From: a virus
Taxonomy: Duplodnaviria > Caudoviricetes
Virus record (IMG/VR): IMGVR_UViG_3300020020_000032
Location: 1-59,881 of that record
Length of the DNA stretch: 59,881 nucleotides
Direction: 5' to 3' (one strand)
The position numbers were made by a program, and so were the translations under genes. Numbering within the stretch: the first letter of the stretch is position 1; every line of letters begins with the position of its first letter. The notes under the pieces are model-generated. The model saw only the letters and a program-made list of their open reading frames with translations. It ran no database searches and was not told where the DNA came from. This document shows positions 2,389-26,651 of this stretch, in pieces.

Positions 2389-2634
2389 ATGCATGTAATC
2401 GGTTACACATATGAAGCTGATTACCATTGTGTTGAGTGTGCTACTAAAGCTTTTGGATTTAAGCTAACTCATCCCGAACGGGTCGGTCCAGCTATTGATA
2501 GTGAGGGCAACGAAGTTCATCCTGTTTTTAACACCGATGAATGGTATGCTAACGACATTTACGAGGGTGCTACTCATGCCACTCTTAACTGTGGTGACTG
2601 TGGTACTGAACTAGACTCTTGGGCTGCTGCTTGA
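2389..2634 (+). CDS. Zn-finger-like hypothetical protein
   Basis: HCVEC ... CGDCG; likely start ATG 2389. Confidence 0.6.
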   Translation: MHVIGYTYEADYHCVECATKAFGFKLTHPERVGPAIDSEGNEVHPVFNTDEWYANDIYEGATHATLNCGDCGTELDSWAAA

Positions 2635-2659
2635 CCTCAACGGGGATTTGTGCTATACT
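2631..2659 (+). promoter_or_regulatory. sigma70/SigA-type promoter P1
   Basis: TTGACC-17 bp (ending TGTGC)-TATACT, with extended -10 TG. Confidence 0.8.
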
Positions 2660-2867
2660 GTACCCTGTGCGGGGCTTTGAGAACCCGCGCCTAACTATGT
2701 GACGTATGTCACTAAGTGGTTAACTCGGTAATTCAACGGGAAGGGGTTAACAGACTTTATGCTGGTACCTATTCTAGCTCTGCTAGGGGTAGTTTTGGCA
2801 TTCGTCGTTTTTATCATGGTACTACCAGTAATTACGAAAGCATATAGAGAGGTGAAAGGTTACGAAG

Positions 2868-3209
2868 ATGGCAGAGCGGATTGATACAAGAGATTTGATG
2901 TTCCGTAGTGATATCGCGGCTCATGCGTTGTTTGAGGATCTACGGAAGAATTGTGAGGAAGAACCGGAAGATGGTATCCAGATGATTCCGGTGGGTGATT
3001 GGCTTGATTATGTTCAGGAGCTTATCGACGACACTTGCACTGGACTACCACCCAAGTTTGAATTCACGCGCTACGATGGTACCAGGGTGGATATCTCTGA
3101 TGAGTGGCCCTATCGGCACGTCAAGATTGATTACGAAGCGGCTGCTGAGGAGCTTAAGTCTGATTACCATGAAGTGGAGTTTGGGGGAGAAACGTACTAT
3201 GTCAAGTGA
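2868..3209 (+). CDS. acidic protein, possibly ArdA-like antirestriction/DNA mimic
   Basis: Very Asp/Glu-rich; C-terminal WPY..IDYEAAAEEL..DY..VEF.G.TYY resembles ArdA-type C-termini (from recall, not a search). Confidence 0.4.
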   Translation: MAERIDTRDLMFRSDIAAHALFEDLRKNCEEEPEDGIQMIPVGDWLDYVQELIDDTCTGLPPKFEFTRYDGTRVDISDEWPYRHVKIDYEAAAEELKSDYHEVEFGGETYYVK

Positions 3210-4200: not shown

Positions 4201-5100
4201 GGTGGAAAAGCTACGGATAATCGAGTGCATCAACGATCTTGTTGGTGATGCAGTTTTTCTTGAGGATAGAGTCGTGAGGTGGTCAGTAACTACCAAAGCT
4301 GATTATGAAGCTTTGTTCAACGATCTACATAAAATCGAATACAGATTTCAAGAGCTAACAAAAACACTTAAAGATGAAGCGGAGCGAGTCGATGCTTGAC
4401 GTGGATGACAAGAATGAGTTGCTTGGTGAGCTTACCCAAGCTAAAGTGCTACTCGATCAACTGATTGAGCAATTGGTTTTTGATGCAGTCAATTTTGTAT
4501 CAATCCACAGAATTGATGACGTTGAATCCCACCTGCATAGGGCTGAAAAAGTTTGGGACAGAATTCTAGTTACGAATGGAATGTGAAAAACGATGGATAA
4601 CGAAGGTTGGCCCGCTTATGGCTGGAATCATGGTGGAGGTGTCGAGATAACGGTGATGCGTAATGGGCAAGACTATCTCAGGTGGACTTGTAGTTGTGGC
4701 TGTAGGGGTTTTTGGACACACACCAGGAATGCGACAAGAGTGTCAGAAAATGCGGAAAGACATATTAGGAGGATGCACAAGAACGATGGGTAGAAAAACA
4801 CGCAAGCAACTGCAGAAGGAAAATCCAAATGGGGACTTGTCTAAATCTGAGGCTAAGGATGAATGGCAAGGACTCAAGTCTACCAAGAATAAGAAGTCTC
4901 GTAAACGACAGCACGGCAAAAGGAGAGGGCGATGAAAAGAATTTTCGTCACGTTTAACGCACCATACAACAAAAATCTTGAGGATATGATCGAGAACACG
5001 GAATATCCTCTTTATCATAAATTGCTGGAATTGATTAGAACTTGGGGTAACGAGGGTGAAACTGCTACGGTGGCTTTCACGATTACGGAGATTGATGCAG

Positions 5101-7230: not shown

Positions 7231-7539
7231 ATGGCAGGTCTTACAGCAGCGGATATCCAGGCACTTCTCAGCAAGACTCGTACCAAGGGTCAGTATGTCG
7301 TTCGTCTTAATGAGTTCATTGAGTCGGGCGAGATGGGTATCTGCGTTAACGAGCAGTGGGTAGAGTTTGCCGACAAGAAGGCTACCACGCTCAAGCAGGG
7401 CTTCGACAACGCGCGTGATAACAAGGAAGCTAACGAGGCTTCTGAGTTCGTGAAGGTTATCTCGAACGAGGATAAGGTTTACCTCGTTAACTTGCAGGTC
7501 GCAGGTCAGGAGCTTGGCGAGGAAGCTGTCGCCGCGTAA
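7231..7539 (+). CDS. hypothetical protein, paralog of the 5101-5586 C-terminal domain
   Basis: Strong GGGAGG RBS before ATG 7231; downstream of promoter P2 and followed by hairpins. Confidence 0.8.
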   Translation: MAGLTAADIQALLSKTRTKGQYVVRLNEFIESGEMGICVNEQWVEFADKKATTLKQGFDNARDNKEANEASEFVKVISNEDKVYLVNLQVAGQELGEEAVAA

Positions 7540-7550
7540 CTAGTAACACA

Positions 7551-7633
7551 AGTAGGTCACTCGTTAAATCGGGTGGCTTACTAAGGGAGTAGGTGTCGGC
7601 AGTAGTGCCCATGATCTACTCCCTTAGTAAGCT
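7551..7633 (+). terminator. Two overlapping hairpins (terminator or processing site)
   Basis: 7551-7563 pairs with 7570-7582; perfect 17-bp inverted repeat 7576-7592/7616-7632. Confidence 0.55.
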
Positions 7634-7656
7634 AAGGAAAGGAGGGTCGCAGCCAA

Positions 7657-7827
7657 ATGACTACAATGGTTCGTAATCGGTTTGCTACTGTCCTTGTTAG
7701 GATTACTTGCGTCTGTTGCGGTTTGAAGTTTACCCGCGACATTGACGGCGATGAGGTGTATTGCGAGGATTGCGTTGATTGCTCGTTTATGCCAGATCAG
7801 TGTCCTAACGATCTCAACCGCTTCTAG
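7657..7827 (+). CDS. 56-aa Cys-rich micro-protein (not in the ORF track)
   Basis: GAAAGGAGG RBS; ...CVCCG...YCEDCVDC.....C. Confidence 0.65.
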   Translation: MTTMVRNRFATVLVRITCVCCGLKFTRDIDGDEVYCEDCVDCSFMPDQCPNDLNRF

Positions 7828-7832
7828 CACCC

Positions 7833-7861
7833 TTGACAAGCGCGGTGCATTGTGCTAGAAT
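7833..7861 (+). promoter_or_regulatory. sigma70/SigA-type promoter P3
   Basis: TTGACA-17 bp (ending TGTGC)-TAGAAT. Confidence 0.8.
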
Positions 7862-7924
7862 ATCGTTCGCCTGAGGGTTCTCCCGTTCCCACAGGTAGTA
7901 AGGGTTACGGGGGGTCGAGCGCAT

Positions 7925-8326
7925 ATGGGTAACTCTGATGCGCTCTCCCCCGTACCCGATGAATTGTGCGCCAATTGTGGTAACTGGTTTAGTGAGCTTA
8001 ACGAAGAAACGGGATGGTGTCACAACTGCTCACCGCAAGTTGAGGTACGTGTAGAAAACTACTTACGGGTAAATGCAGATGAAATAGAACATTACCTTCT
8101 ACAAGGCAAATCAGTGAATCAAGCGATTGATTTACTTCATAAAGAAAACGGGAGAGTGAAGTGTCTGGTATGCGGGAACACGATAAAGAGAGCGAAGCGC
8201 ACAGCAATCTTTTGTCGGAAAACCCCGATGTGCAGAAAAATGAGCAGGAGGTACGTTTATCTGTACCGGGAGCAGGGCCTGTCGAAAGCGCAGGCTCTAG
8301 CGGAAATCCTCAGCGATTTAACCTAA
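7925..8326 (+). CDS. double Zn-finger hypothetical protein
   Basis: CANC..CHNC and CLVC..FC....C. Confidence 0.7.
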   Translation: MGNSDALSPVPDELCANCGNWFSELNEETGWCHNCSPQVEVRVENYLRVNADEIEHYLLQGKSVNQAIDLLHKENGRVKCLVCGNTIKRAKRTAIFCRKTPMCRKMSRRYVYLYREQGLSKAQALAEILSDLT

Positions 8327-8803
8327 TCAAGATTATCAGTGGTGGTCAGGTTGGCGCTGATATCGCAGCTTTGAGAGCTGCCAAGTCTTTAGGTGTTGAA
8401 ACCGGAGGTTACATGCCTCACGGTTATAAAACAGCACAGGGCAATAAGCCTGAGTATGCTGAGTTGTATGGCATGTTTACTACTGTGTCAGAAGATTACC
8501 CTCAGCATACTCAGGCTTCGCACTTCACACAATGTGAGGAAATCCGATGGTACGCTTAGAATCGCGTACAACTTCGATAGTTATGGTGAGCGCGCAACGC
8601 TGCGCGAAATCTACAAGTGGAGTAAACCGCACTATGACGTTAATCCCAGGAACTTCTCTCAAGATGAAATCCGAAACGTCGTAGATTGGTTGCTTGACCA
8701 CGATATCAGAATTCTCAACGTGGCTGGCAACGCGAAGCCAGAGATTGAACCTTTCGTAGAGATGTTCATTGTGAGTTTGATTAGAGAAGGAAGGAGACAT
8801 TGA
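8326..8803 (+). pseudogene. SLOG-superfamily (cpYpsA / putative MoCo-carrier-like) protein, frameshifted at about 8503-8515
   Basis: KIISGGQVGADIAAL..GG.MP.G in one frame; RT..NV..SDGTL...LNVAGN in another; removing 13 nt rejoins them as DYPLRT. No ATG/GTG/TTG right at the domain start. Confidence 0.75.
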
Positions 8804-9961
8804 TTACATGAGCGGTGGTAGTTTCAACTACTTGTCCTATAAGGACATTGACGATCTTTGGTATGGTGCTGGTCCCGAATGGGATTGGATGCTTGACGAG
8901 CTTGATAAACTTTGTCCAGAAGCGGCGGTTAATATGCGTAAGATTAAAACCGATCATGACGAGTTTATCAAGCAGAACCAATCGTTATGGAATGATCTGC
9001 AACCAGTTCTTCATGCTGTAGAATGGTGGCGTTCTAACGATTGGGGTAAAGATCAAGTAGACGAAGCAATCCAGACGTATCACGAAAGAAAAACGGGATG
9101 AACTACGATAGAAATGCGCCTAATCTAGTTGCAGATGATAAGGGTAACATCATGGGTTGGGTGATTCAGTGGAACTATCATGGAGTAGGAGAAGCCATCG
9201 TGCAATTCTTCGATGGTTCTGCTGACTCAGCTTTGGTTAGAGAACTAAACTTTCCGAATGGTAGAGAGGAAGCATACGAATGGCTGAACGCCAAGGAGAG
9301 GAATTCGATAGGATGAATAAAATCAAGATAGAAGTCGATGAATTTACGGCTGAGTATGCTGGTTGCGGTTCGCACAGAATTCTACTTAGAATGGAAATGA
9401 GCGATGAAAGTGTGGCTGTTTGGCATGATAGACTTACTAGGATTATCGAAGGCAGGAAGTCTATCGAAGAGGAACGTCTGGAACAGGAAGCCAAGCTTGC
9501 ACAAGAACAAAGGGATAGAGGGCTGTTAGCATGACGGTCGATGAGCTAGTTACTAAGCTAGCAAAACCCATCATGGTATATCGTTTTGCGAAAGCACAGC
9601 ATAATCGCAAAGGTGCAAATAAACGAATGGTAAATGCCATGCGTGAAATTGATGAAATCATACGGGAGTATGCTTTTGAGCATATCGACACGGAAGGAGG
9701 TTAAATGAGTATATTCAAACAAGGGACTGTAACTTTGGGAGCGCAGAATTTAGCTCATATTCATCACGATCTTTATCAAGAATCGGAACAGACTATGTTG
9801 GACGCTCCTGTGGGAAATTGGTATTCTCTTTCCAGGCATGATAGAATGGTTCTTTCTAAAGCCATGCAATTGATGCTAGATCAGGGATTTATTGAGTTCG
9901 GTCCAAATCACAAACCAATACTTGTTAAAGCACACGCTGTAAAGCATAATTGGGAGCGAAA

Positions 9962-11579
9962 ATGACAGTGCAACGTAAGCCCATCTTGAAGAAGAAACCG
10001 AGTGGCAAGTTCAAGATGCATGACTTCCAACGGGAGGACATAGACATTCTAGCAGAGCGTGATGCCTCAGCTAACTGGTCTGAAATGGGAGCTATGAAAA
10101 CGACCACAGTTGAGTGGTTGTGGCAGAAGAAACTCAAGCACATACCCAATCCTCGAGTTTTGGTTATCACAACTAAGACAGGTAAAGGTACATACTTTGA
10201 GTCTCTAGCTGAGGTGCTCCCCGAGTGGGACGTATTCACGGTTAACACGACTAAGACTAATATGGTGATTGGGCCTAAGCCTGTTCCAATTAACGTGAAG
10301 TTGCCTGATCCTTTGTACTTTAGGCCGGTGGTAGTTGTAGCACACTATCACTGTTTCACCAACAATGCTTGCATTCCAAAGCAAGTAATGGGTGAGAATG
10401 GTTTGCCCATTCTCAGGGATGATGGTAAGTTTGAAATGACTGAGCCACCCTGTCTCAACTTGCTCTTGAGTCATTGGGATTTCATCGTTGTTGATGAAGC
10501 CCATAGAATCAAGAATCGTGATGCTCAGTGGACTCAGAACATCAAGAAGCTAAAGGCTCCAATGAAGCATATTATGACGGGAACCGGATTCGTCAACAAT
10601 CCGTCAGAAATTTGGAGTCTGTTGAATTTTCTATTCCCCGACGTTTATACATCGGAAGAAAAGTTTAGGAAGCATTACTGCGAAATTGAGAACTACTCAG
10701 GGTACGAAAAGATTGTGGGCATCAAGCCACAAGCGGAGGATGAGTTTAGGGAGTTGGTTAGAACAGTTGGTGTACGTCGAACTATGCTTGAGTGCTTTCC
10801 TGGTATTGGAGAGCCTATCGAGACTATCGTACCTGTCGATCTAAACCCAACACAGAGGCGTATGTATGTAGAGTTGGCTGAGATGCTACATACGCTTGAC
10901 CAACAGGGTGAGCCTCTGCATAGCCCGAACGTGTTGTCTATGCTCAATAGGCTCCGACAGATTTGTGTCGCAACCCCTCAGGTCATTGATGATTACTATG
11001 ATTACAAGGAGGAACGACGCATTATCAAGGTCAAGCTGGTTGAGCCTAGTTCCAAACTCGATGCTACGATGGAGATTATCGAAGGTCTAGAGTGGGATAA
11101 GGAACGTAAGGATCAAGTGGTGGTGTTCTCTAACTTCAAGGACCCACTTGCACTTCTTGAAACTCGTCTTGAGAAAGCGAAGATTCCTTATATCCGTTTG
11201 CTCTCTGAAATGAATGAACAGAAGCGTTACGAGTTGTGGCATGATGTTTGGCCTCAAAAAGAGCATCAGGTGTTCTTGAGTACCCTGGATTTGGGTAGCG
11301 AGAGAACACCTGATTAACCTAACGTCTGCTCACAGGGCTATCTTTCTAGATCAGCATTGGTCGCCAGTGAAGAACACGCAGGCTATCGGTCGTGTGTATC
11401 GTCCGGGGCAAACAGCGGTTGCACAACTTATCTACATCAGAGCAGACGGCACCACAGATAACAGGGTACTCGACAAACAAGTAACCACGAAGGGTTGGTT
11501 CAAACAAATCTTCGGTGAGCCTGACCAGGAGGATGAAGATGAGGAAGTGGATAATCAAGAAACTGATGCGACCGAGTGA
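9962..11579 (+). pseudogene. SNF2-family (SF2) helicase, frameshifted at about 11306-11312
   Basis: SEMGAMKT (motif I), VVDEAH (II), MTGT (III), VVVFSNF (IV); INLTSA..IFLD..WSP....QAIGRVYRPGQ (V/VI) lies in another frame after a net +7 nt insertion. Confidence 0.85.
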
Positions 11580-13311: not shown

Positions 13312-13731
13312 ATGACATCACTATGGAAAATATGGACGGCGGGAGTTGCTATTACTGTGGTTGTTCTAGCATTGGTTATGTCGTTCGTTTTTGGTACGTG
13401 GTACGTAAGCAAGGGTATTAGTCGTTATCAGAAACGAGCAGACGCTAACAACAACGTGAGAGTAAGTGAAATTCAGATTCGCAACCAGCGGCAGCGTGTT
13501 CAGATTGCCAAGCAGAGGGCCGAGATTAGATATCAGGAGGCTCTCGGTATTCGTAGATCACAGGATGCCATCGCCAGGACTCTGACACCGTTGTACGTCC
13601 AGCATGAAGCTATCGAGGCTCAGGTGGAAATGGCTAAGTCAGATAACCATTCGATTATCTGGGCACCTACAGGAGCTAATGGTGTACCACTTGTCTCTAC
13701 TTTCGATGTTCAAAGGTTCGGCCAGAAATAA
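13312..13731 (+). CDS. membrane-anchored coiled-coil protein (SPFH/band-7 C-terminal-like)
   Basis: N-terminal TM helix, coiled coil, LTPLYVQHEAIEA...IIW.PTG..GVP. Confidence 0.55.
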   Translation: MTSLWKIWTAGVAITVVVLALVMSFVFGTWYVSKGISRYQKRADANNNVRVSEIQIRNQRQRVQIAKQRAEIRYQEALGIRRSQDAIARTLTPLYVQHEAIEAQVEMAKSDNHSIIWAPTGANGVPLVSTFDVQRFGQK

Positions 13732-13744
13732 CAGGTTAAGGGAC

Positions 13745-13773
13745 TTGACAAACGCTCTCGGTTGTGCTAGAGT
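13745..13773 (+). promoter_or_regulatory. sigma70/SigA-type promoter P4
   Basis: TTGACA-17 bp (ending TGTGC)-TAGAGT. Confidence 0.8.
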
Positions 13774-13779
13774 TCCGGG

Positions 13780-14380
13780 TTCAGCGAGGGTCAAACGGGA
13801 AAGGTAGCGTGATTGTCCGTAAAGTGACAGGTCACGATAACAACAGGTTTGAGGAACGTCAGGGTTGCTACGCTGCGGCGTGGCCTGTTCTGTCCGTTCC
13901 TCAACGTGGGGAGGGAATTTCGCTTCTGTTCGCTTCCCTCGCCGGTTTCTCTCCCCATCTCCCCACATATAACGTGGTGGATAGCGTCAAGAGTGATGCA
14001 TAGCCATAATCTAACGGGTCTTGGTTATGAGTAGGTATTCGTGAGAACCTATGCTATCCACCTCCTAGTAAAGCGGGGACTTCCTAGGCAAGTTGACACA
14101 CTAAAAAGGGAAGCGGGTTTTGTTGTCTTTGCCCCGCTTGGCTCGCTTCCCACTTAAAACGTTGAGAAGACTTGCCTTCTCAACATAAGGGTTGGGGGAG
14201 TGGTGCCGCAACTGCTCCCTCAACATACTAAGTTTGTGTGTGGCGAGGCAGGAGACACTCTAACGGAACGGTTAACACACGGCTACACGGAACGGTAGTC
14301 CTAGAGTGATTCGATAGGGGAAGGCGTGGTTGAAAGCATCCGAACTAGTGTAGGGTGTGAGTAAGGTAGCCATACACAAA
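13780..14380 (+). ncRNA. Candidate large structured ncRNA or leader (~600 nt, at least 9 stems), family not recognised
   Basis: No credible ORF; stems at 13808-13836, 13849-13904, 13906-13966, 13976-14062, 14064-14088, 14108-14151, 14161-14184, 14191-14224 and 14233-14380; G-U pairs favour the + strand. Confidence 0.7.
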
Positions 14381-14387
14381 GGAGATA

Positions 14388-15713
14388 ATGGCAACTAAAC
14401 AAGCACAGTGGGTTCAACCTAAGATACCTAGTAAGTGGGATATCATACCCATTCACAGTAGCGACCGGGCCAACTTTAGACGTTGCCGTCGCTATTGGGA
14501 CTGGAGTAGTCCGTCCCGACATAATTTAACTGTTCGCGCTGATATTCACGGCGTTAGTATTCCGCTGTTTTTCGGTACAGGCATCCATCATGCGCTTGAG
14601 CAGTTTTATAACCCTATATTGCGTCGTGATCCAGTCGAAGCGTTCCAAACGTGGTTCGACGTTCAATGGCGTGGTGGTACTGTCACAAAAGAGTGGCTTG
14701 ACCGCGTTTACGATCTTAAACCACGTTCCACAGGTGAATATATCGTCGAGCAGGACAGTTGTACTTGTCCTATCGAACCTCGTAATGCCGAGCATCATGG
14801 ACATCTTCCAAAATGTCCTGCGGTTATCGGCATTTATATGGTTCGGGGGCTAGAGGACATTCTACCCGATCCTGACCACAACGAGTGGGATGAGTTGAGA
14901 GAACTCGGCGTAGAAATGATGAAGTATTACAAGACGTATGCCGAGATTAACGATGATTTTGAGGTACTCACAGCCGAACATGATTTTAGCATTCCAGTGT
15001 GGGACTATGAGAACGATTGTATTCTCAAGGCACTGGACGTTCGGGATGATTCACCGAATTGTGGTGAGATTCTTGAAGTCCATGCTCGCGGTCGTATGGA
15101 TGCTGTTGGCATTAGACCTAGTGAAAAGTATCTGTTGGTTGAGAACAAGTCAGCTACACGTTGGGGTGAAGAAGAACTTCGTAAGTTAGAGTCAGACGAA
15201 CAGTGTACGAACTATCTCTATTGTGCGGAGGTTGAGGCTACGTACTATGATCTTCCACATAAAGGTCAACCTTTGGAGGAAGTCATATACAATGTCCTGC
15301 GGAAAACTTATCCCAAACCACCAACAGAACTCAAGAACGGTATGTTCTCCACAGATCGCCAGAACGAGTCAACGACGATTGACTTGCTTGACAAGTTCAT
15401 CGCCACGAATATGCCAGGTATTCCACTCAACGAGAAACAATCGGAGTACCGCAGTTATCTACGAGAGATAGGTGATGAGAACTTTATCGTCAGAAAGCCT
15501 GTCCGTAGGAATCGGCACCAACTCAGAAATGCGGGTCGAAGGTTGTACCTAGAAAGCATGGATATGCTCTCCAAGCCTAGAATTTATCCCAACATCAGCA
15601 ATTCCTTCAAGTGCCTTAACTGCGCTTTTAGGCCACCTTGCATGGCAACTGAGGATGGTGGCGATTGGGAACAACTAATCAAGGATAACTACACTGTCAA
15701 CAAGGATCGCTAA
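14388..15713 (+). CDS. PD-(D/E)xK exonuclease, Cas4/RecB/AddB-like, with putative 4Fe-4S cysteines
   Basis: FRRCRRYW; FGTGIHHALE; GRMD...LVENKS; Q...Y; CLNC.FR..C; GGAG RBS. Confidence 0.85.
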   Translation: MATKQAQWVQPKIPSKWDIIPIHSSDRANFRRCRRYWDWSSPSRHNLTVRADIHGVSIPLFFGTGIHHALEQFYNPILRRDPVEAFQTWFDVQWRGGTVTKEWLDRVYDLKPRSTGEYIVEQDSCTCPIEPRNAEHHGHLPKCPAVIGIYMVRGLEDILPDPDHNEWDELRELGVEMMKYYKTYAEINDDFEVLTAEHDFSIPVWDYENDCILKALDVRDDSPNCGEILEVHARGRMDAVGIRPSEKYLLVENKSATRWGEEELRKLESDEQCTNYLYCAEVEATYYDLPHKGQPLEEVIYNVLRKTYPKPPTELKNGMFSTDRQNESTTIDLLDKFIATNMPGIPLNEKQSEYRSYLREIGDENFIVRKPVRRNRHQLRNAGRRLYLESMDMLSKPRIYPNISNSFKCLNCAFRPPCMATEDGGDWEQLIKDNYTVNKDR

Positions 15714-15889: not shown

Positions 15890-17722
15890 TAACCACCTAA
15901 AGATTGTCTGCGTTGATTGTGGTAAGTTGGCAAACTACAGCATTCCGTGGAGAGTATGGTGGTGTGGCTTTTGTGATAGAGAAGTCACGGATGAGTTGAT
16001 TTGCAGAACGTTCATGTTCACTGGCAATCCAATGAATTAGGAGAACGGGAGTTATGAACGAAGCAATCTTTATAGCAGGAGCAATTTTTATTCATGCAGG
16101 TTGGACTACACCATCCAGAGAAGACGATGATGTTGCCATTCCTGTTCTTATGGGTATTTTGTGTTTGTGGATAGGTATTTTGGTATGGGTATTGGAATAG
16201 GTAAACTGGTAGGTAAGGTAGTTGGGGAAACTATGGCACTTCCCGTTACGATAGTGGATGAAACGATGGAAGCGGTGGAGGAAGCCATGGACACACTTGG
16301 TAAGAGGATTGAAGGAGAGGATGAAGATGCCAAAGATCGCAGTTAGAACAGAAGATCGTGTAAGAATTGAAGTCGAGTACGATGATTATAAAGAATGGGA
16401 GCGCATTCTTGGTGATGATGCTGAGGAACACACGACGTTTGCTGATCCTGCTCACCCAAAAACCAGTGGTTGGTGGAAAACTTTGTATCTCAAGGTTGGA
16501 GAGACTGAGTATCGTTTCAGTGGCCCACTAATGCGAAGTCGTGAGGACTAATGATTGAGAAACTTTACAGCGAGGAACAAGGAAGAATTGGAACTATCGC
16601 AGAAAAGATCAATGAGATTATCGACGCAATTAATGGTTCGATGGAAAGTGATACTGGTGCTAGTGATTGGTACATCACAGGAGCACATGCTAGAAGGGCG
16701 GTTGGTTACCTGTGTGCAGTATTGGTAACGCAAGGGCATCTACCAAAGGACTTCGACTTCGCGTGGGTGGCTGATATTTGGGCAAAAGCACTTGAGGCTA
16801 CAATGTCTCATTCAGACGAAGATCCATCACCCATCGGGGTATCGAATGAAACTAGACCTTAGTGATAGTAAAGAATACTTGGAGGCTTTGAAGCTAGCTG
16901 AGAACTTCCCATCTATCTTTGATTACGCAAGTCGGGAAGATAATTGGGACGGAGATCAGCTACTTGATGAGGCTATGGAAGCCATACATAAGTGGTGTCC
17001 TCACCTCTGGCCTCAAATAGATAGATTCGTTCTAGCCTATGTCTCTGAGCATTAAGGAGGTTGAGGCCCTACTCAAACCTCAGCCAAAGAAATACCCACG
17101 CAGGGTACAGATTGGACCGTTCCATCTTATGGATGGTAACAGTCGTTGTTGTTCACGTGGTTGCGGTAGCCCTACTCAATATCAAGTCTGTGGAGTTTGG
17201 TACTGTATGGTTCATGCAGTTGAGTTGTTGAATAAGATGGTAGTGATTCTTGCCAGTGACAAAGGTTGGCACAAAGCATTTGTCAAAGCAAAGGAGAGAG
17301 CGGCATGAGGAAGCTGGTTTGTGATGGTGTTGATTGTGGTATCGCTGAGGATTCTAGCGTATCACGATCGAAGCGTGTAATTCAACGAGTCAAGTTGTCT
17401 ATCGTTATCGATGATCGAGAAAGTTGGGCAGGTAGTACGATTGATTATGAAGCTGACCTTTGTACTGATTGCCAACTTCGTGTGCTTCACAACTACTTCG
17501 GCATACCAGCACAGGGCAAAACAGTTTTGCCAGCTTTCATTGAACCACAGAGTATTAGGGCAATAAGGTAAACAATGACAAGCACAGGGTTCATCATAGT
17601 GACCATTTTGTTAGCGATTCTCGCAGTTATTATTCCCGTATCGTGGCATCATGGATATACTGCCGGTTACGCAGATGGGAAAGAAGTCGATACTGGCGTG
17701 TATGGCGATTGGAGGGACGACG

Positions 17723-18535
17723 TTGGCAGCAACTACGGTGAATAATGAACTGCGAGATAGTTTGCAAGTCAAGCCTCCGAGTGAAGCCGTAGATTGGTTG
17801 AACATTATGGTCTATGGTGATCCGGGTGTTGGCAAGACGTATCTGGCAGGTACTGCAGAAGATGATCCTCGCACTAGTCCTGTTCTGTTTTTGGATATCG
17901 AGGGTGGGGTCACTACAATTCGGAACAGGACAGGAATAGATGTCCCTCCGAACATGAAGAACATCAAAGAGATTGAGGTTTTGTACGACAAGCTGTGGAA
18001 GTCAATCGACAACAAGGGTAAGCTGTATTACAAGACAGTGGTGGTTGACTCGCTTAGCGAACTGACGGACGTTGATATGCGCTCAATCATGAAGGACGCT
18101 TATGCGAAGAACCCCGATAAAGTCGATAAAGATGTGCCAAGTCAACGTGAATGGGGTAAGGCAAGAAGTCACATGCGTACAATCGTTAGGGCGTTTCGTG
18201 ACCTTCCCTGTAACGTGATCTTTACGGCACAAGTAGCAACCCTTCAAGAAGAAGGGCAACCAACGAAGTACATGCCGGGATTCGCGGGTAAGTTGCGAAC
18301 AGAGCTTCCGGGGTTCATGGACATTGTTGGTTATATGTCGTCGGAAGTAGAACAGGGGGTGATTACTAGAAAGATACAAGTTCAGGGTACTCGTCGAGTC
18401 GTAGCAAAGGATCGTACTGCGGCTCTTGGGGATATACTGGAAAACACTTCTATCCCCGAAATGTTCGACCTCATTCATAATCACTCAGCGGTGCAGGTCA
18501 ATAGTAAGACTGCCGCTAGCAACAAGAAAGGGTAA
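17723..18535 (+). CDS. Sak4-like / AAA_24 P-loop ATPase (phage recombinase)
   Basis: YGDPGVGKT Walker A; FLDIEGG; VVVDSLSEL; NVIFTAQ; GGAGG RBS before TTG 17723. Confidence 0.85.
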   Translation: MAATTVNNELRDSLQVKPPSEAVDWLNIMVYGDPGVGKTYLAGTAEDDPRTSPVLFLDIEGGVTTIRNRTGIDVPPNMKNIKEIEVLYDKLWKSIDNKGKLYYKTVVVDSLSELTDVDMRSIMKDAYAKNPDKVDKDVPSQREWGKARSHMRTIVRAFRDLPCNVIFTAQVATLQEEGQPTKYMPGFAGKLRTELPGFMDIVGYMSSEVEQGVITRKIQVQGTRRVVAKDRTAALGDILENTSIPEMFDLIHNHSAVQVNSKTAASNKKG

Positions 18536-18537
18536 AC

Positions 18538-19035
18538 TTGACTGGTCCACTTAACCTAGCTGATGCCGATCTTAAAGGCATCGAAGCTGTAGAGCCTGGA
18601 AGGTACAACGCAGTTATCCATGAAATGAAGCTGGACGCTGTGAAGAACACGGACGGCACAGGTAAGATGCCTGCCGGTACCCCGATGATTAAGGTGCAGT
18701 TCAGGATCACCGACGATATCAACGGTTCTACGAATCGTCGTGTATTCTCTCAGTATCTAATCCCTCCAAAGGATTACGATAAGGAGAAGGCTGCAAAGAT
18801 CAAGGGTATGACAGCTAGGTTCTTCATCGCTCTCGGCGACAAGGAAGAAGATGTAGTGAGTGCCAAGTTTGATCCTGACTTTGAGGATTATCTTGGTCGT
18901 GAGTGTGTTGTCGTCGTTGGCAAGGAGCCAAAGAAGATCAATGGAGTTGTTGTCGAAGATGAGTTCAACAACCCCGTCAAGGGTGTCAAGCCAGCGGGAT
19001 CTATCGCTGCTGGTGAGGATACTGGGCTTCTGTAA
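18538..19035 (+). CDS. DUF669-like ssDNA-binding protein
   Basis: PG.YNAVI...G.PMIK..F.I; follows the Sak4-like gene; short acidic/hydrophobic tail. Confidence 0.7.
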   Translation: MTGPLNLADADLKGIEAVEPGRYNAVIHEMKLDAVKNTDGTGKMPAGTPMIKVQFRITDDINGSTNRRVFSQYLIPPKDYDKEKAAKIKGMTARFFIALGDKEEDVVSAKFDPDFEDYLGRECVVVVGKEPKKINGVVVEDEFNNPVKGVKPAGSIAAGEDTGLL

Positions 19036-19038
19036 AGA

Positions 19039-19145
19039 ACTAGCTCAATTGCGTTGCACAAGCCTTGTCGGGCGAGCCTTACCCCGAGTTAGGCAAACGT
19101 CGAAGGCGGGGAACGTAGGTAACTGCGTTCTGCGATTGAGCTAGT
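19039..19145 (+). ncRNA. Candidate ~107-nt multi-branch structured RNA
   Basis: 14-bp closing stem 19039-19052/19132-19145 enclosing 19062-19094 and the GUAA-capped hairpin 19111-19130. Confidence 0.55.
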
Positions 19146-19149
19146 ACAA

Positions 19150-19188
19150 GGAGAGAGGTACTACGAGGTTTTTGTGGTACCTCTCTCC
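19150..19188 (+). other. Strong hairpin before the primase gene
   Basis: GGAGAGAGGTAC / GTACCTCTCTCC 12-bp perfect stem with no U-tract. Confidence 0.6.
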
Positions 19189-19209
19189 ATATTAACGGGA
19201 AAGGCTTAG

Positions 19210-21378
19210 TTGTCTCAGGTTACCAAGAGCAAATCTGAAATCAGGCTTGGCTTCTTTGAGTTGCTATTTGGTGATACCGTTGGATACTTGTGCATCTTCT
19301 CAACTGATCCGAAGGCTCCTAAATCCGCGGTTAAGGAACGATTCTTCGAATGGCCTAAGGAGTCACTTAAAGTTGAGAACTATATCTTGTCAGTCGAAGC
19401 ATCGAACAATGTTTATTTCTGCGTTAATCTGCTAAGTGAGCAGCAACGTAAAAAGAAGCATTGTCTGCCCACCGATCTTATTTGGTCTGACTTAGATACG
19501 GTCAACCCCGACAGCTTAACAAGGCTTCCACCAGCAATTGTACTTCAATCGTCCCCTGGGCGTTGGCAAGCATTCTGGCGTTTGACAACTAAGGTTGAAC
19601 CCTATGACGCTGAACGCTACTCCAAGAGAATAGCTTACGCAGTAGGAGCAGATAGGTCGGGTTGGGACTTGACTCAGTTGCTCCGAGTGCCTCTAACACG
19701 AAACTTCAAGTATCACCCTGCTGCACCTGTTGCTCTTGAAAAAGCTTTAACGGTACGTGTTGAGGCTTCTGTAGTTGAGGAGGTTTTTGATCCTCCACCG
19801 GAAGAAGCACCTTTGTTGGAGCAACCACTCCCTGGTGAGCCTCTCATAGCTAACGATATCATCGCCAAATATTCTCATCACTTGGATATGACTCGTTTCA
19901 CAACTCTCTACACTTACGAACCTGCCGGGGATGAAGATTGGTCAAAGCTACTGTGGTCGTTGGAGGTTATGTGTTTTCGTTCGGGCATGACAGCCGACGA
20001 AGTTTTCACTGTAGCGAAAGAGTCTGCCTGTAACAAGTTTGCGCGTGATGGTCGTCCTATTGAACATCTTTGGCGCGATGTTCTGAAAGCTAGTGAGGCA
20101 TATGGCAACATGCCGTTTGAGAAAGAGTTGCTGGAAATGCCGAAACTGGTTGATGAGCCAGCTAGCGAGACATTCGTTGATGAGTACAAAACTTGGGCTT
20201 GCGAAGCAACAGACGCAGTACCTGAGTTTCACGAGCTTTCCTGCTTTATTGTGTTGTCATCAATCACAGCAGCTTCTCTAAGATTAGAGACTTCATACGG
20301 TCCAATAGCTCCAAACATTTGGGGCTTGATTCTAGGTGATAGCACAGTAACTCGTAAATCCACCAGCATGAAGATGGCTGTTGATTTGTTGGCTGAATTG
20401 GAGCCTGAGCTTATTCTTGCTACTGATGGTTCTGTGGAAGGTCTACTCTCTGGCATGGCGACGCGCCCAAATAAGGTTTCGGTTTTCTTTCGTGACGAGG
20501 TTAGCGGATTGTTTGATTCAATCAATCGCAAGGATTACCTCAGTTCAATGCCTGAGACACTGGCGCACTTGTATGACGTGCCACCAGTGTATTCAAGATT
20601 GCTTCGCAAAGAGGTCATTCGCATTGAATCACCGGCTTTCATTTTCTTCGGTGGAGGTATCACTGAACGAGTGTACCAAAACGTCAGTGAGAGTTGGATC
20701 GAATCGGGATTCATGCCACGATTCTTGATCGTGAGTGGTGACTTTGATAAGGAGGGTATGAGAGCTACTGGTCCTCCTAGTAAGATTGGCGTTAAACGTC
20801 GTAGCGAAATTGTTGAGAAGCTGTCAGACTTGTATGAGAACTATGCTGCGGAGGTAGCTGTGAAGATTGGTGGAAAACAAGGTGGTACGATGATGATGCC
20901 TCCGAGAATCATAGCCACCATGACTAGCGATGCCTGGGCTAGATATCAGGCTATCGAAGGCCAGTTGACTGTTTACGGTTATGAGTCTCCACTCAGGAAT
21001 ACGGCTCTGCCTACACTTGATAGGTTGGCTCGTTCCATCCTGAAAATGGGTGTGATCTTGGCAGCTACGAAACAAGAGCCTATTGACAATCATATCATGG
21101 TTGAGGAGGATGACATTGTAAATGCCGCTTGGTACGCACAGAAGTGGGGTGCTCATAGTGTTGAGCTTATCTTGAATGCTGGTAAGGCTCCACGTGAGAA
21201 GGTACTCGATAGGGTACGACTTAAGATTCAGAATAATCCTGGTGTTCTACGTTCCACGATAATGCAGCATATGCACATGACCAAACGGGAAATGGATGAA
21301 GTCATATCTACGCTGGAAGAACGATCCCAGATTCGTAAAGAACAAGCTGGTAGAGGATGGAGGTATTGGGCAACATGA
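19210..21378 (+). CDS. DNA primase (RepB-like AEP) fused to a DUF3987-type P-loop helicase domain
   Basis: WSDLD; SSPGRWQAFW; QLLRVP.TRNFKY; ILGDSTVTRKSTS; FRDEVSG; SGFMPRF. Confidence 0.85.
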   Translation: MSQVTKSKSEIRLGFFELLFGDTVGYLCIFSTDPKAPKSAVKERFFEWPKESLKVENYILSVEASNNVYFCVNLLSEQQRKKKHCLPTDLIWSDLDTVNPDSLTRLPPAIVLQSSPGRWQAFWRLTTKVEPYDAERYSKRIAYAVGADRSGWDLTQLLRVPLTRNFKYHPAAPVALEKALTVRVEASVVEEVFDPPPEEAPLLEQPLPGEPLIANDIIAKYSHHLDMTRFTTLYTYEPAGDEDWSKLLWSLEVMCFRSGMTADEVFTVAKESACNKFARDGRPIEHLWRDVLKASEAYGNMPFEKELLEMPKLVDEPASETFVDEYKTWACEATDAVPEFHELSCFIVLSSITAASLRLETSYGPIAPNIWGLILGDSTVTRKSTSMKMAVDLLAELEPELILATDGSVEGLLSGMATRPNKVSVFFRDEVSGLFDSINRKDYLSSMPETLAHLYDVPPVYSRLLRKEVIRIESPAFIFFGGGITERVYQNVSESWIESGFMPRFLIVSGDFDKEGMRATGPPSKIGVKRRSEIVEKLSDLYENYAAEVAVKIGGKQGGTMMMPPRIIATMTSDAWARYQAIEGQLTVYGYESPLRNTALPTLDRLARSILKMGVILAATKQEPIDNHIMVEEDDIVNAAWYAQKWGAHSVELILNAGKAPREKVLDRVRLKIQNNPGVLRSTIMQHMHMTKREMDEVISTLEERSQIRKEQAGRGWRYWAT

Positions 21379-24212: not shown

Positions 24213-26651
24213 TTGAAGCCTAAAGCACCTCACGCGCTTTGCGATAAGTGTCCGTTTAAGGATCGTGACTTTGCTGCCACGACTGGCCCTGCCGATGCTG
24301 AGATTGCAGTTGTGAGTAGATCACCTGGGTATTACGAAGCTTTGAATGGTGAGTCGTTTGCTGGCCCTAGTGGTAAGGTACTTGACCATTTGCTGAAACT
24401 TCATGGTAAAGATAGAGAGCAGGTGTTGTGTACTAACGTGGTTCTCTGTCAGAGCGATGGTCAAGAAAACGGATTTGGGTTAGCTCAGGCTTGCTGTGCG
24501 CCCCGCCTAGACCACGAAATCGCTGACGCAGCCACGGTTATAGCCTGCGGGACAGAGGCTGTGAGGGGGCTTACAGACGCCGGTGGAATTGCATCAAATC
24601 GCGGTTACGTGCATTATCGTGACTCAGGCAACAACCACATGCAGCGCGTTATTGTATCCAACAACCCAGCTATGGTGCTTCGTGATGATGGAGTGTTTCC
24701 CGAGCTAGTTCGTGATTTCAAACTTGCCATAGATCCCCTACCTACACCAGAACTGCCGAAAGTCAAATGGACGGAGGATTTAGATGAAGCTTGTAAATGG
24801 GCATCGGACATTTACGATCAGCTTAGAGAAACTAGTGGAACTTTGTTGTCCGTGGATATTGAAGGAGGATATCCTGACCTGGCATGTATCGGGTTCTCAC
24901 TACGATCCGAAAAAGCGGTCACTATTGGTATCGATCCTTGTAAAGAAGAGGACTTCCGTAGAGAATATCTGGATAGACTACTCACTCTACCCAATGTCAG
25001 ATATCTCTGGCAGTTCGGAAAATACGACACCAAAGCCTTAAGGAGATTTGATATAAATGCACGTGTCGATGAAGATACAGGATTGCTCAGTTACGCGCTT
25101 GATGAACGTCCTGGCGATCCTGAATCGGGAGCAGGAGGCCACTCTCTTGAATGGCTGCTTAAAGATGAACTTGGTTGGTCCAAATACGAACCATCTTCTG
25201 TCAGAGATTTCAAAGCTGGACGTGGGGTATGGGCAGACTGGCCGAATCAGTCTGCTCCAAAGCGAGAGCGGATAGATCTATATGAATACAATGGTATGGA
25301 TACTGCTGGAACCCTTTCCCTCTATCATGTTCTCAAAGAACGTGCAATTAACGACAACGTATGGGAAAGGCCGTATAGATCACAACTTCTCCCACTTAAT
25401 GCGGCCCTCACGGAAGTTGAGCTTTACGGTAATCTTTGGGATGCAGATGCCGCCTGCGACATTCTAGAAGAAGAAGTTTGGCCCAGACTAGATGAATGGC
25501 GTGGGGTACTTCGTACTATTAGTAGACGACCTGAACTGAATCCTAATTCACCTAAACAGCTTAAGGAGCTAATGTATGATATATGGGGAATCGAACACGA
25601 TCTTGATAGGCCAAGGATTGAACGGCAAGGAAAGAAATCTACAGACAAATCAGTACGAGAGGTTATTCTTAGGGGTGATTATCGGAGTTCTAACACTCGG
25701 GATCGTAATGGAATTGAGGCGTTCATTAAGACGCTAGACTCGTGGAAGGAGTTGGATAAGCAACGTGGAACTTACCTTGAAGGACTCACTCTCAAGAGGT
25801 CAGAAGATGGGCGAATATATACTGACTTCAAAATTCACGGTACGGAGTCAGCACGGCTTAGTTCAGCAAAGCCGAACATGCAAAATATCACTCGACCAAA
25901 AACCGGACTCCCAAATATTAGAAGAGTTTTTGTCGCAGATCAAGGATGCCAATTTGTATCGGCTGACTTATCTCAAGCGGAGCTTAGAACAATTGCTGTT
26001 TTGTCGGAAGATACAGAACTCCAAGCCATTTATCTAGACACCAGTAGATCCCTCCACAAAGAGATTGCGGAACAGTTTTATGGAAAAGATTATACGTACG
26101 AAGAATATGTCAAGGCGAAGAACATTAACTTTGGAGTTGCTTACGGACAGAGCGCGTATACATTCCATCAGATGTATAACATGCCACAGAAAGAAGCTCA
26201 AGATTTCATAGATTTTTGGTGGCAGCGGTTTCCGCAAGTAAAGCAATGGCGTAAAGATATCGAAACACAAATGAATGAGAAGGGTGAGTTCCAATCACCC
26301 TTTGGTCACAAGCGCAGGTTCTACGTTATTCCATCAGATCAGAAAGGATATATTCATGCGGTTAACCAGGCTGTTTCTTTTCTACCACAGAATATCGCTG
26401 CAAATGTTACACTATATGCCGTTACCAAATTGGTGGAAACTTTGGATCCTCAGGAGGCACAAATCCGCATTACTGTTCACGATTCGATTGTTGCCTGCGT
26501 CAAGGAAAAATACGTCGAAGATGTCGCTACACGGATGAAAGCACAACTAGAAAATGCAGCCAAAGAATCAATTGATTGGGACTTCCCATATCTAGCTGAT
26601 CTGTCAGTAGGTCCAACATGGGGAGACTTGAAGGAGATAGAAATCAAGTGA
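24213..26651 (+). CDS. polA: Family A DNA polymerase with N-terminal family-4 UDG-like domain and 3'-5' exonuclease
   Basis: CDKCP..PG..E..F.GPSG..TNVVLC (UDG-like); DIE, KYD, YNGMD (ExoI-III); RLSS, DLSQAELR, AKNINFGVAYG, VHDS. Confidence 0.93.
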   Translation: MKPKAPHALCDKCPFKDRDFAATTGPADAEIAVVSRSPGYYEALNGESFAGPSGKVLDHLLKLHGKDREQVLCTNVVLCQSDGQENGFGLAQACCAPRLDHEIADAATVIACGTEAVRGLTDAGGIASNRGYVHYRDSGNNHMQRVIVSNNPAMVLRDDGVFPELVRDFKLAIDPLPTPELPKVKWTEDLDEACKWASDIYDQLRETSGTLLSVDIEGGYPDLACIGFSLRSEKAVTIGIDPCKEEDFRREYLDRLLTLPNVRYLWQFGKYDTKALRRFDINARVDEDTGLLSYALDERPGDPESGAGGHSLEWLLKDELGWSKYEPSSVRDFKAGRGVWADWPNQSAPKRERIDLYEYNGMDTAGTLSLYHVLKERAINDNVWERPYRSQLLPLNAALTEVELYGNLWDADAACDILEEEVWPRLDEWRGVLRTISRRPELNPNSPKQLKELMYDIWGIEHDLDRPRIERQGKKSTDKSVREVILRGDYRSSNTRDRNGIEAFIKTLDSWKELDKQRGTYLEGLTLKRSEDGRIYTDFKIHGTESARLSSAKPNMQNITRPKTGLPNIRRVFVADQGCQFVSADLSQAELRTIAVLSEDTELQAIYLDTSRSLHKEIAEQFYGKDYTYEEYVKAKNINFGVAYGQSAYTFHQMYNMPQKEAQDFIDFWWQRFPQVKQWRKDIETQMNEKGEFQSPFGHKRRFYVIPSDQKGYIHAVNQAVSFLPQNIAANVTLYAVTKLVETLDPQEAQIRITVHDSIVACVKEKYVEDVATRMKAQLENAAKESIDWDFPYLADLSVGPTWGDLKEIEIK

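Follow-up and report, generated by a model that had tools for sequence, protein, structure and literature searches.

The largest gene-poor stretch in the genome of an uncultured soil phage, 656 nt at 13732-14387 directly upstream of a gene for a Cas4-like nuclease, raised the question of whether a gap so rich in predicted hairpins encodes one large RNA, several small ones or something else. The window that we analysed is the complete virus record (IMG/VR IMGVR_UViG_3300020020_000032, 59,881 bp), in which this gap ranks first by greedy tiling of open reading frames (ORFs). An initial annotation, made from the letters alone, had described 13745-14387 as a single structured RNA of ~600 nt with its own promoter, either a new class of the size of ROOL and GOLLD or a precursor of separate small RNAs, and possibly a partner or guide for the nuclease. 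We found that only the last 142 nt of the gap (14236-14377) have relatives, and comparative analysis showed this segment to be a copy of a predicted RNA family that is undescribed in Rfam 15 and shared by many uncultured phages. The gap as a whole is probably transcribed as the leader of the nuclease/Sak4 recombination operon and made up of RNA modules that fold separately, this new small-RNA module among them.

With the gap as query, blastn and nhmmer searches of the first 83 loci gave matches confined to positions 577-648, and across all fetched loci only the last ~70 nt of the gap matched; the nuclease relatives used came from IMG/VR (3) and from metagenomes (87, of which 80 were kept). No homologue of the 5' ~490 nt (13745-14235) was found in ~170 related or pattern-derived loci, and blastn of 13700-14420 against a phage GenBank collection gave no match. 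Covariance models R1 to R3 were built from the copies of the conserved segment, and further members came from two more IMG/VR pattern scans and a scan of species genomes, bringing the family to 17 distinct full-length sequences, plus one copy truncated at a contig end, on 24 phage-like contigs. Elsewhere the module occurs on its own with a length of 100-167 nt (142 nt in the window), and its G+C content across members is 0.48-0.69. The window copy scored 76 bits with R2 and 93 bits with R3 (E about 1e-18 to 1e-21).

The first strict DNA pattern, derived from two copies, matched only the known contig together with L006 and L007, which were chance matches in coding sequence. The pattern GGAAGGNGTGGTT...AGGTAG retrieved 27 stretches, 25 of them new; R2 matched six of these at E up to 1, and only L107 was accepted, with L097/L103 and L114/L118 rejected because the pairing of the closing stem, P1, was absent; L098 did not enter the family. 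Of the 53 stretches that carried GGAAGGGTGGTT...AGGTAG, 52 were run against R3 (L088 was already known), giving 20 matches; the 13 at E <=5.4e-4 were accepted and the seven at E 0.029-0.36 rejected (L133, L125, L158, L150, L162, L130 and L135), the first three of these lying in AT-rich, apparently coding sequence. The scan of species genomes returned one match, on a phage-like contig binned in a 16-Mb metagenome-assembled genome (MAG), and among 151 genomes of that MAG's family the motif was present in that MAG alone.

Covariance-model searches found no catalogued counterpart, so that the expectation of something new in this region was upheld. Rfam 15 (4227 models) gave no match in the window at the gathering threshold; at E up to 10, the only match in 13500-14600 was sau-63 (E 8.7, - strand); and on the loci with other copies there were only tRNAs and weak unrelated matches, none on the motif. 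A literature search, outside whose scope lay supplementary files and subscription journals, returned no published description of the motif, and the matches listed for its core strings were unrelated primer lists.

The module folds as a three-way junction, with the following parts in the window.

14236-14377 (+): three-way-junction RNA module, defined by R2/R3 matches, covariation and invariant columns
14236-14244 paired with 14369-14377 (+): P1
14245-14248 (+): GAGG
about 14256-14308 (+): P2, variable
14319-14329 (+): junction GGAAGGCGUGG
14330-14364 (+): P3 with a purine-rich internal loop
14365-14368 (+): GGUA
14378-14387 (+): spacer, directly after P1 in the sequence, with the nuclease ribosome-binding site AAAGGAGAUA

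The copies share a layout of terminal stem, GAGG, variable hairpin domain, GGAAGGnGUGGUU, second long arm and AGGUAG leading into the 3' half of the stem, so that the order of the core is P1-(G)AGG-P2-GGRAGGnGUGGUU-P3-AGGUAG-P1'. In an alignment of the 17 sequences, 92.4% of the cells of 19 modelled pairs were paired and 17 of the 19 pairs changed on both sides; the covariation score was 0.897, against 0.228 +/- 0.029 in shuffles, none of 500 of which reached it, and at most 0.185 in a slid-partner control. Smaller sets of sequences gave the same picture. The closing stem P1, 8-11 bp across members, differs in sequence between copies while its pairing is always kept (9 modelled pairs with 98.7% of cells paired, 8 of them changing on both sides), and P3 contributes 10 pairs in two helices with 83-95% of cells paired, 9 of which change on both sides. 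Covariation among homologues, which had been proposed as a check on the whole gap, was thus borne out for 14236-14377 and found no footing in the 5' ~490 nt, which have no homologues. Folding energy added little here, the module being marginal by shuffling (z -2.1, 3/100), and its support comes from covariation instead.

Seventeen columns of the alignment were invariant, in the window all at 14246-48, 14320-30 and 14364-69; the junction strands (G)AGG, GGRAGGnGUGGUU and AGGUAG are both purine-rich and invariant. P3, a long arm with a GAAAG/(G)AGUA purine loop, takes two forms: in seven members, including the window copy, GAAAGC faces G(U/G)GAGUA beside the junction and encloses a hairpin, while in the other members these two strands lie at the tip of the arm, beyond an ordinary helix. 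Watson-Crick pairs replace the purine loop in two copies (L044 and L008). We take the facing GAA/AGUA strands to resemble a loop E or sarcin-ricin-type motif. P2 varies in length across members, and that of the window is nearly identical to P2 of L107 and L119, with few changes and the pairing kept.

The module was always intergenic, and the downstream ORFs, found for 12 of the 17 copies, were on its strand. It lies 5' of the nuclease gene in the window and in three related contigs (L001, L044 and L008) and 3' of it in four others (L029, L027, L015 and L002), and in L119 it stands elsewhere on the contig; the tally of linkage to the nuclease covers these contigs together with L107 and L091. 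A start codon follows 10-36 nt 3' of the module in six of the 17 copies (the window, L091, L148, L122, L149 and L123). A tRNA gene lies 6-126 nt away in three: 126 nt before the module in L001, 37 nt after it in L142, and 6 nt after it in L107, where tRNA-Leu(UAA) is followed by a primase gene. In L140 a TTGACT-17-TAGGAT promoter ends 9 nt upstream of the module and a canonical terminator stands 13 nt downstream, and in L119 the module comes after a gene, at the end of a transcription unit, with a promoter of the window phage's type following it. The genes downstream are unrelated to one another, with a Pfam family in none of the seven tested, and no nuclease homologue was found in the MAG holding L091. 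In related contigs the equivalent spacers contain tRNAs, tRNA-like pieces and other conserved structured modules, of which there are at least two, and in L044 1 kb of non-coding sequence made up of such modules precedes the nuclease gene. These comparisons showed that RNA modules are exchanged as a mosaic among related phages.

The remainder of the gap begins at the near-consensus promoter that the initial annotation had pointed out, TTGACA-17-TAGAGT, in which 10 of 12 positions agree with the consensus. This promoter is one of a phage-specific type, TTGAC-N13-17-TGCTA, found at 7 sites in the window where 0.70 are expected, a number reached in none of 100 shuffles. At least one match to this motif occurs in 30 of 92 loci examined, and its N15 form has four sites, all in the early region on the + strand. 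The same promoter type stands 77-171 nt 5' of the nuclease match in 13 of 80 related metagenome contigs, and ~90 nt upstream in the nearest relative by identity of the nuclease N-terminus. As the relatives' promoter sits so close to the nuclease, this phage has ~550 extra nt between the conserved promoter and the nuclease gene. The features of this part are as follows.

13745-13773 (+): sigma-70-type promoter TTGACA-17-TAGAGT with a TG extension, 10/12 consensus positions
2631, 7006, 7833, 13745 (+), 33576 (+), 43755 (-), 46646 (-): TTGAC-N13-17-TGCTA sites
13808-13836 (+): hairpin, z -3.2, 0/100 shuffles as stable
13809-14003 (+): possible orphan ORF, GTG start, 64 codons, overlapping the first hairpins
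13849-13904 (+): long hairpin TTGAGGAACG.../...CGTTCCTCAA, z -5.4, 0/100
13906-13966 (+): hairpin of marginal stability, z -1.8, 7/100
13976-14062 (+): cloverleaf-shaped four-way junction with a 10-bp closing stem, no tRNA, z -5.0 and -5.1
14064-14088 (+): claimed stem at chance level, z +0.2
14108-14151 (+): hairpin, 12-bp stem with G-U pairs, z -3.0, 1/100
14161-14184 (+): hairpin GTTGAGAAG/CTTCTCAAC, then ATA, z -5.4
14191-14224 (+): hairpin of 14 bp with 3 G-U pairs, then ATA, z -5.6

The proposal that the gap is structured at the RNA level, and folds better than shuffled controls, held with z about -5 and the + strand the better one. The whole gap folded at -243.9 kcal/mol on the + strand (z -5.03, 0/20 shuffles equally stable) and at -201.3 kcal/mol on the - strand (z -2.66), and 13775-14235 alone gave z -5.00 and z -4.26 on the two strands (0/100 each), the + strand being 24 kcal/mol more stable through G-U pairs. 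Against 100 dinucleotide shuffles, six of the nine stems listed in the initial annotation stood, two were marginal and the one at 14064-14088 fell. G-U pairs make up 24 of the 171 pairs of the minimum free energy (MFE) structures across the stems; the + strand was the more stable in 6 of the nine modules, equal in 2 and worse in 1, and the hairpin at 14191-14224 is 10.6 kcal/mol weaker on the - strand (-22.5 versus -11.9). The GTTG...TCAACATA said to be common to the hairpins at 14161 and 14191 is present in the sequence. As had been noted, there are no tRNA or tmRNA hallmarks: ARAGORN called no tRNA or tmRNA gene in the whole window and none in 13700-14400 at default or -ps85, with only meaningless intron calls at -ps75, and Rfam found none. 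Genome-wide, the gap was among the top 15 of the + strand 200-nt windows and not first, 19001-19300, 7451-7750 and 8351-8550 scoring higher, and a crude count of stems with >=9 pairs, only 1.8-fold enriched in the gap, was not used as evidence. The gap at 2625-3000, behind another promoter of the same family, showed no excess structure (z -0.11).

The 3' arm of the hairpin at 13906-13966 is an 8-nt tandem duplication, TCTCCCCA occurring twice at 13950-13965, which gives this hairpin two alternative 3' arms. Five soil DNA sequencing runs contained the region, and in the four that were compared the only informative variant in the gap was a deletion of 9 nt in this tandem repeat, in one contig.

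We consider that the module works as a self-contained unit because it recurs in so many contexts: before start codons, beside tRNAs, at the end of a transcription unit and between a promoter and a terminator. These varied contexts, together with the closing stem and the neighbouring tRNA genes, lead us to favour a stable, trans-acting small RNA over a cis-acting regulator or a ribozyme, and we propose, tentatively and from sequence comparison, that the module may be cut from longer transcripts and act in trans. The module would be transcribed along with its neighbouring genes, host RNases would trim it out as they do phage tRNAs, and the freed RNA could then use its exposed purine-rich junction to act on a protein or on the ribosome; the 5' hairpins would be stems that aid processing or stability in this lineage alone, or else additional RNA modules private to it. 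Of the two options in the initial annotation, a precursor of separate small RNAs thus comes closer, with processing as its presumptive part.

Several observations weigh against this account. The transcription, processing and stability of the module were all inferred, since no RNA sequencing run holding the region was among those listed. Pairs were counted on model-fitted alignments, although the covariation of P1 is plain in unfitted MAFFT alignments too, and the invariance of the core is partly built in by the way in which members were found, since 9 of the 17 sequences came from DNA patterns that demand the core and the remainder by similarity to the window copy. Six of the 17 copies lie directly before a ribosome-binding site, which would fit a cis-acting leader equally well. 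For the 5' part, comparative support across the ~170 loci is nil, the - strand also folds well (z -4.26), and a real small gene may be present.

A cis-acting leader element, that is, a riboswitch-like aptamer or a protein-binding operator controlling translation or termination of the downstream gene, is a rather unlikely competitor. A three-way junction that is closed by P1 and lined with invariant nucleotides looks aptamer-like, and P1 ends close to the start codon in the six copies mentioned (in the window, the AAGGAG site follows 3 nt after it). In L140 the module is preceded by a promoter and followed by a terminator and then a ribosome-binding site; the sequence of the 3' strand of P1 (GCCUCC) recurs in the 3' half of the terminator stem, and the two might therefore compete, while in L001 a hairpin after the module appears by eye to bury the start region of the next gene. 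Set against this, the downstream genes are all different; three copies adjoin tRNA genes and one closes a transcription unit, with a promoter after it, so that neither the constant place in 5' leaders nor the consistent gene class of a riboswitch is found; and no alternative pairing was seen that hides the ribosome-binding site of the window. It is improbable that the module is instead a new self-cleaving ribozyme, or a dedicated signal for RNase processing, through which polycistronic early transcripts and the precursors of tRNAs are cut. Most small ribozyme classes are found in phage genomes, and a small junction with ~17 invariant nt, placed between genes on the coding strand and beside tRNAs, would suit one, but no Rfam ribozyme model matches the module and no cleavage-site hallmark can be named. 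Taking a ribozyme acting on early or tRNA transcripts together with an aptamer for a host metabolite or signal, we regard a new functional RNA class with an activity of its own as unlikely; were the aptamer reading true, the sensing of a host metabolite or signal would time early-gene expression. A guide for the nuclease is not supported: the module is not tied to the nuclease, given that it also occurs 3' of that gene, before start codons and a primase gene, beside tRNAs, alone with its own promoter and terminator, and in a MAG where we found no homologue of the nuclease, and we saw neither constant linkage nor a repeat-spacer or guide architecture. Ideas of a CsrA sponge or of SRP-like, RNase P-like or phi29 pRNA-like RNAs were dropped after inspection by eye, with nothing in their support.

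The 5' part calls for separate weighing. It is possible, though on balance doubtful, that 13809-14003 encodes an orphan protein of 64 residues and that the truly non-coding part is 14004-14387. The ORF begins ~30 nt past the expected transcript start, its AACGGGAAAGG and start-codon context are identical to those of the primase start at 19210, and its codon score of 0.154 exceeds those of all 71 shadow ORFs (maximum 0.142). On the other hand, that score lies in the lowest 10% of true in-frame pieces, the GTG start falls within the hairpin at 13808-13836, most of the ORF lies in very stable hairpins, and it is unconserved in related loci. It has no Pfam or PHROG family and no relative in a word-indexed protein library, and among 1.84 billion representatives it gave one weak, repetitive match to a 599-aa protein (4 stretches, E 1.4e-4). 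If a longer, 79-codon ORF at 13764-14003 is counted as a gene, the gap shrinks to 384 nt. Codon scores of -0.26 to -0.70 in all three + frames support the gap being non-coding from 14004 on, to which extent the original claim of a largest non-coding gap stands, and a protein here would be compatible with our account of the 3' part. The hairpin-rich 5' part might also act as DNA, as a replication origin or a recombination or protein-binding site, but this is very improbable. It does lie within the replication/recombination module, and its - strand also beats the shuffles; yet it is somewhat G+C-richer than the genome, has no iterons and no AT-rich tract, owes the 24 kcal/mol advantage of its + strand to G-U pairs, and stands downstream of a conserved promoter while being absent from relatives that keep the same genes. 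Least credible of all is the single large RNA of a new class spanning 13745-14387 (~600 nt). One promoter, no internal terminator, continuous hairpins and an overall z of -5 speak for it, but the unit is unconserved, with relatives for its last 142 nt only; the modules fold on their own; long-range pairs appear only in the single-sequence MFE structure; and relatives mix different modules in the same spacers.

Other RNA-like elements were seen in the window and in related contigs. In the window, the spacer at 19030-19215, ahead of the primase gene, is more structured than the gap (z -6.98) and contains a Y-shaped element with a 14-bp closing stem and a 17-bp hairpin; at the equivalent place L107 has the conserved motif and its tRNA-Leu. 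A second structured spacer at 7535-7930 (z -3.56) holds a 19-bp hairpin at ~7576-7633 and the TTGAC-N15-TGCTA family promoter at 7833; by flanking homology, the L119 copy of the motif occupies the equivalent locus. A second conserved module of ~150 nt, closed by TTGGGAGAG/CTCTCCCAA and containing GAGGACAGTTAGGCGATAA, is present in three related contigs (L008 ~75-215, L065 ~2165-2350 and L044 ~2748-2902) and absent from the window, and a third, with GGTGTC.../...GACACC closing, lies directly 5' of the motif in three contigs (L029 ~1385-1500, L027 ~4652-4768 and L088 ~2614-2700); neither has an Rfam match. L086 (~150-235) and L044 (~2484-2595) carry tRNA-like elements with perfect T arms (GGTTCGATTCC) and abnormal bodies, both missed by ARAGORN at default and the former called tRNA-Leu only at -ps85. 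The RNA island of two related contigs, L001 (2870-2945) and L065 (1864-1939), includes a 76-nt tRNA that ARAGORN called tRNA-Stop with anticodon UUA and the Rfam tRNA model matched at 50.6 bits; it may suppress ochre codons or have an unusual anticodon loop. Directly 5' of the motif in L127 (~690-730), TAAGTCC is repeated five times in tandem, and L027 has an apparent second tandem copy of the motif (GGATACTCC GAGG ... GGGGAGGGCGTGGTT) at ~4905-5006, cut by the contig end.

The gap lies in a replication and recombination module that occupies the + strand over the first 30 kb of the window and includes the following genes.

9950-11317 (+): SNF2 helicase
14388-15713 (+): PD-(D/E)XK exonuclease, Cas4-like, four-cysteine (PF12705, E 3.5e-9; phrog_1218, E 2.4e-31)
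17651-18535 (+): Sak4-like annealase
19210-21378 (+): RepB-type primase
24213-26651 (+): family A polymerase with an N-terminal UDG domain

The nuclease has the features of the Cas4/AddB type, namely a PD-(D/E)XK fold with one N-terminal and three C-terminal cysteines. These cysteines, C33, C409, C412 and C418, are invariant among four homologues and are presumably the ligands of an Fe-S cluster. Because the surrounding gene set is a replication/recombination module, the nuclease is the usual exonuclease partner of a phage annealase, outside any CRISPR system. At 24213-26651, a uracil-DNA-glycosylase-superfamily domain (PF03167, E 2.2e-14) is N-terminal to, and in the same reading frame as, the family A DNA polymerase.

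The cataloguing of phage non-coding RNAs is still poor, and here an anonymous hairpin-rich gap becomes a defined RNA fold. The results show that the hairpin-tiled gaps of this phage group are mosaics rather than single giant RNAs, composed behind conserved promoters of exchangeable RNA cassettes, tRNAs and tRNA-like pieces among them. With its compact fold, invariant purine-rich junction and strong covariation, and its absence from Rfam 15, the module is a good candidate for the bench, since RNAs so small and conserved are usually ribozymes, aptamers or specific binders of a protein or the ribosome.

Among known systems, the early transcripts of phage T7 carry RNase III processing hairpins between genes. 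The 5' hairpins of the gap are likewise long, stable and intergenic and lack U-tracts, so that by analogy they might have such a role; their stems of 9-14 bp are, however, shorter than the classic sites, and there is no sequence link. P1-closed three-way junctions are also the architecture of the purine and TPP riboswitches, and like these aptamers and orphan riboswitches the module has an invariant junction and variable arms and often precedes a ribosome-binding site, but it differs from them in having no Rfam riboswitch match, no consistent class of downstream gene and some copies outside 5' leaders. GOLLD and ROOL, which are sometimes near tRNAs, resemble it in being non-coding, phage-borne and without an assigned function. 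These large ornate phage-associated RNAs (bioRxiv 10.1101/2024.12.08.627333) are single conserved RNAs of 400-800 nt, whereas here only a module of 100-167 nt is conserved and the rest is private; the GOLLD and ROOL models of Rfam match nothing.

The closest functional analogy is with the small stable RNAs of the T4 tRNA cluster, rnaC (species 1) and rnaD (species 2). R3 found nothing at rnaC/rnaD in an 8-kb T4 region, its best match (E 5.3) lying elsewhere, and unlike the T4 RNAs most copies of the motif are away from tRNAs, with processing that is presumed. Like them, the motif is a phage-encoded structured RNA of similar size (~120-140 nt in T4), the function being unassigned in both, and just as rnaC and rnaD are annotated as co-transcribed among tRNA genes, the motif stands beside tRNA genes in three of its 17 copies.

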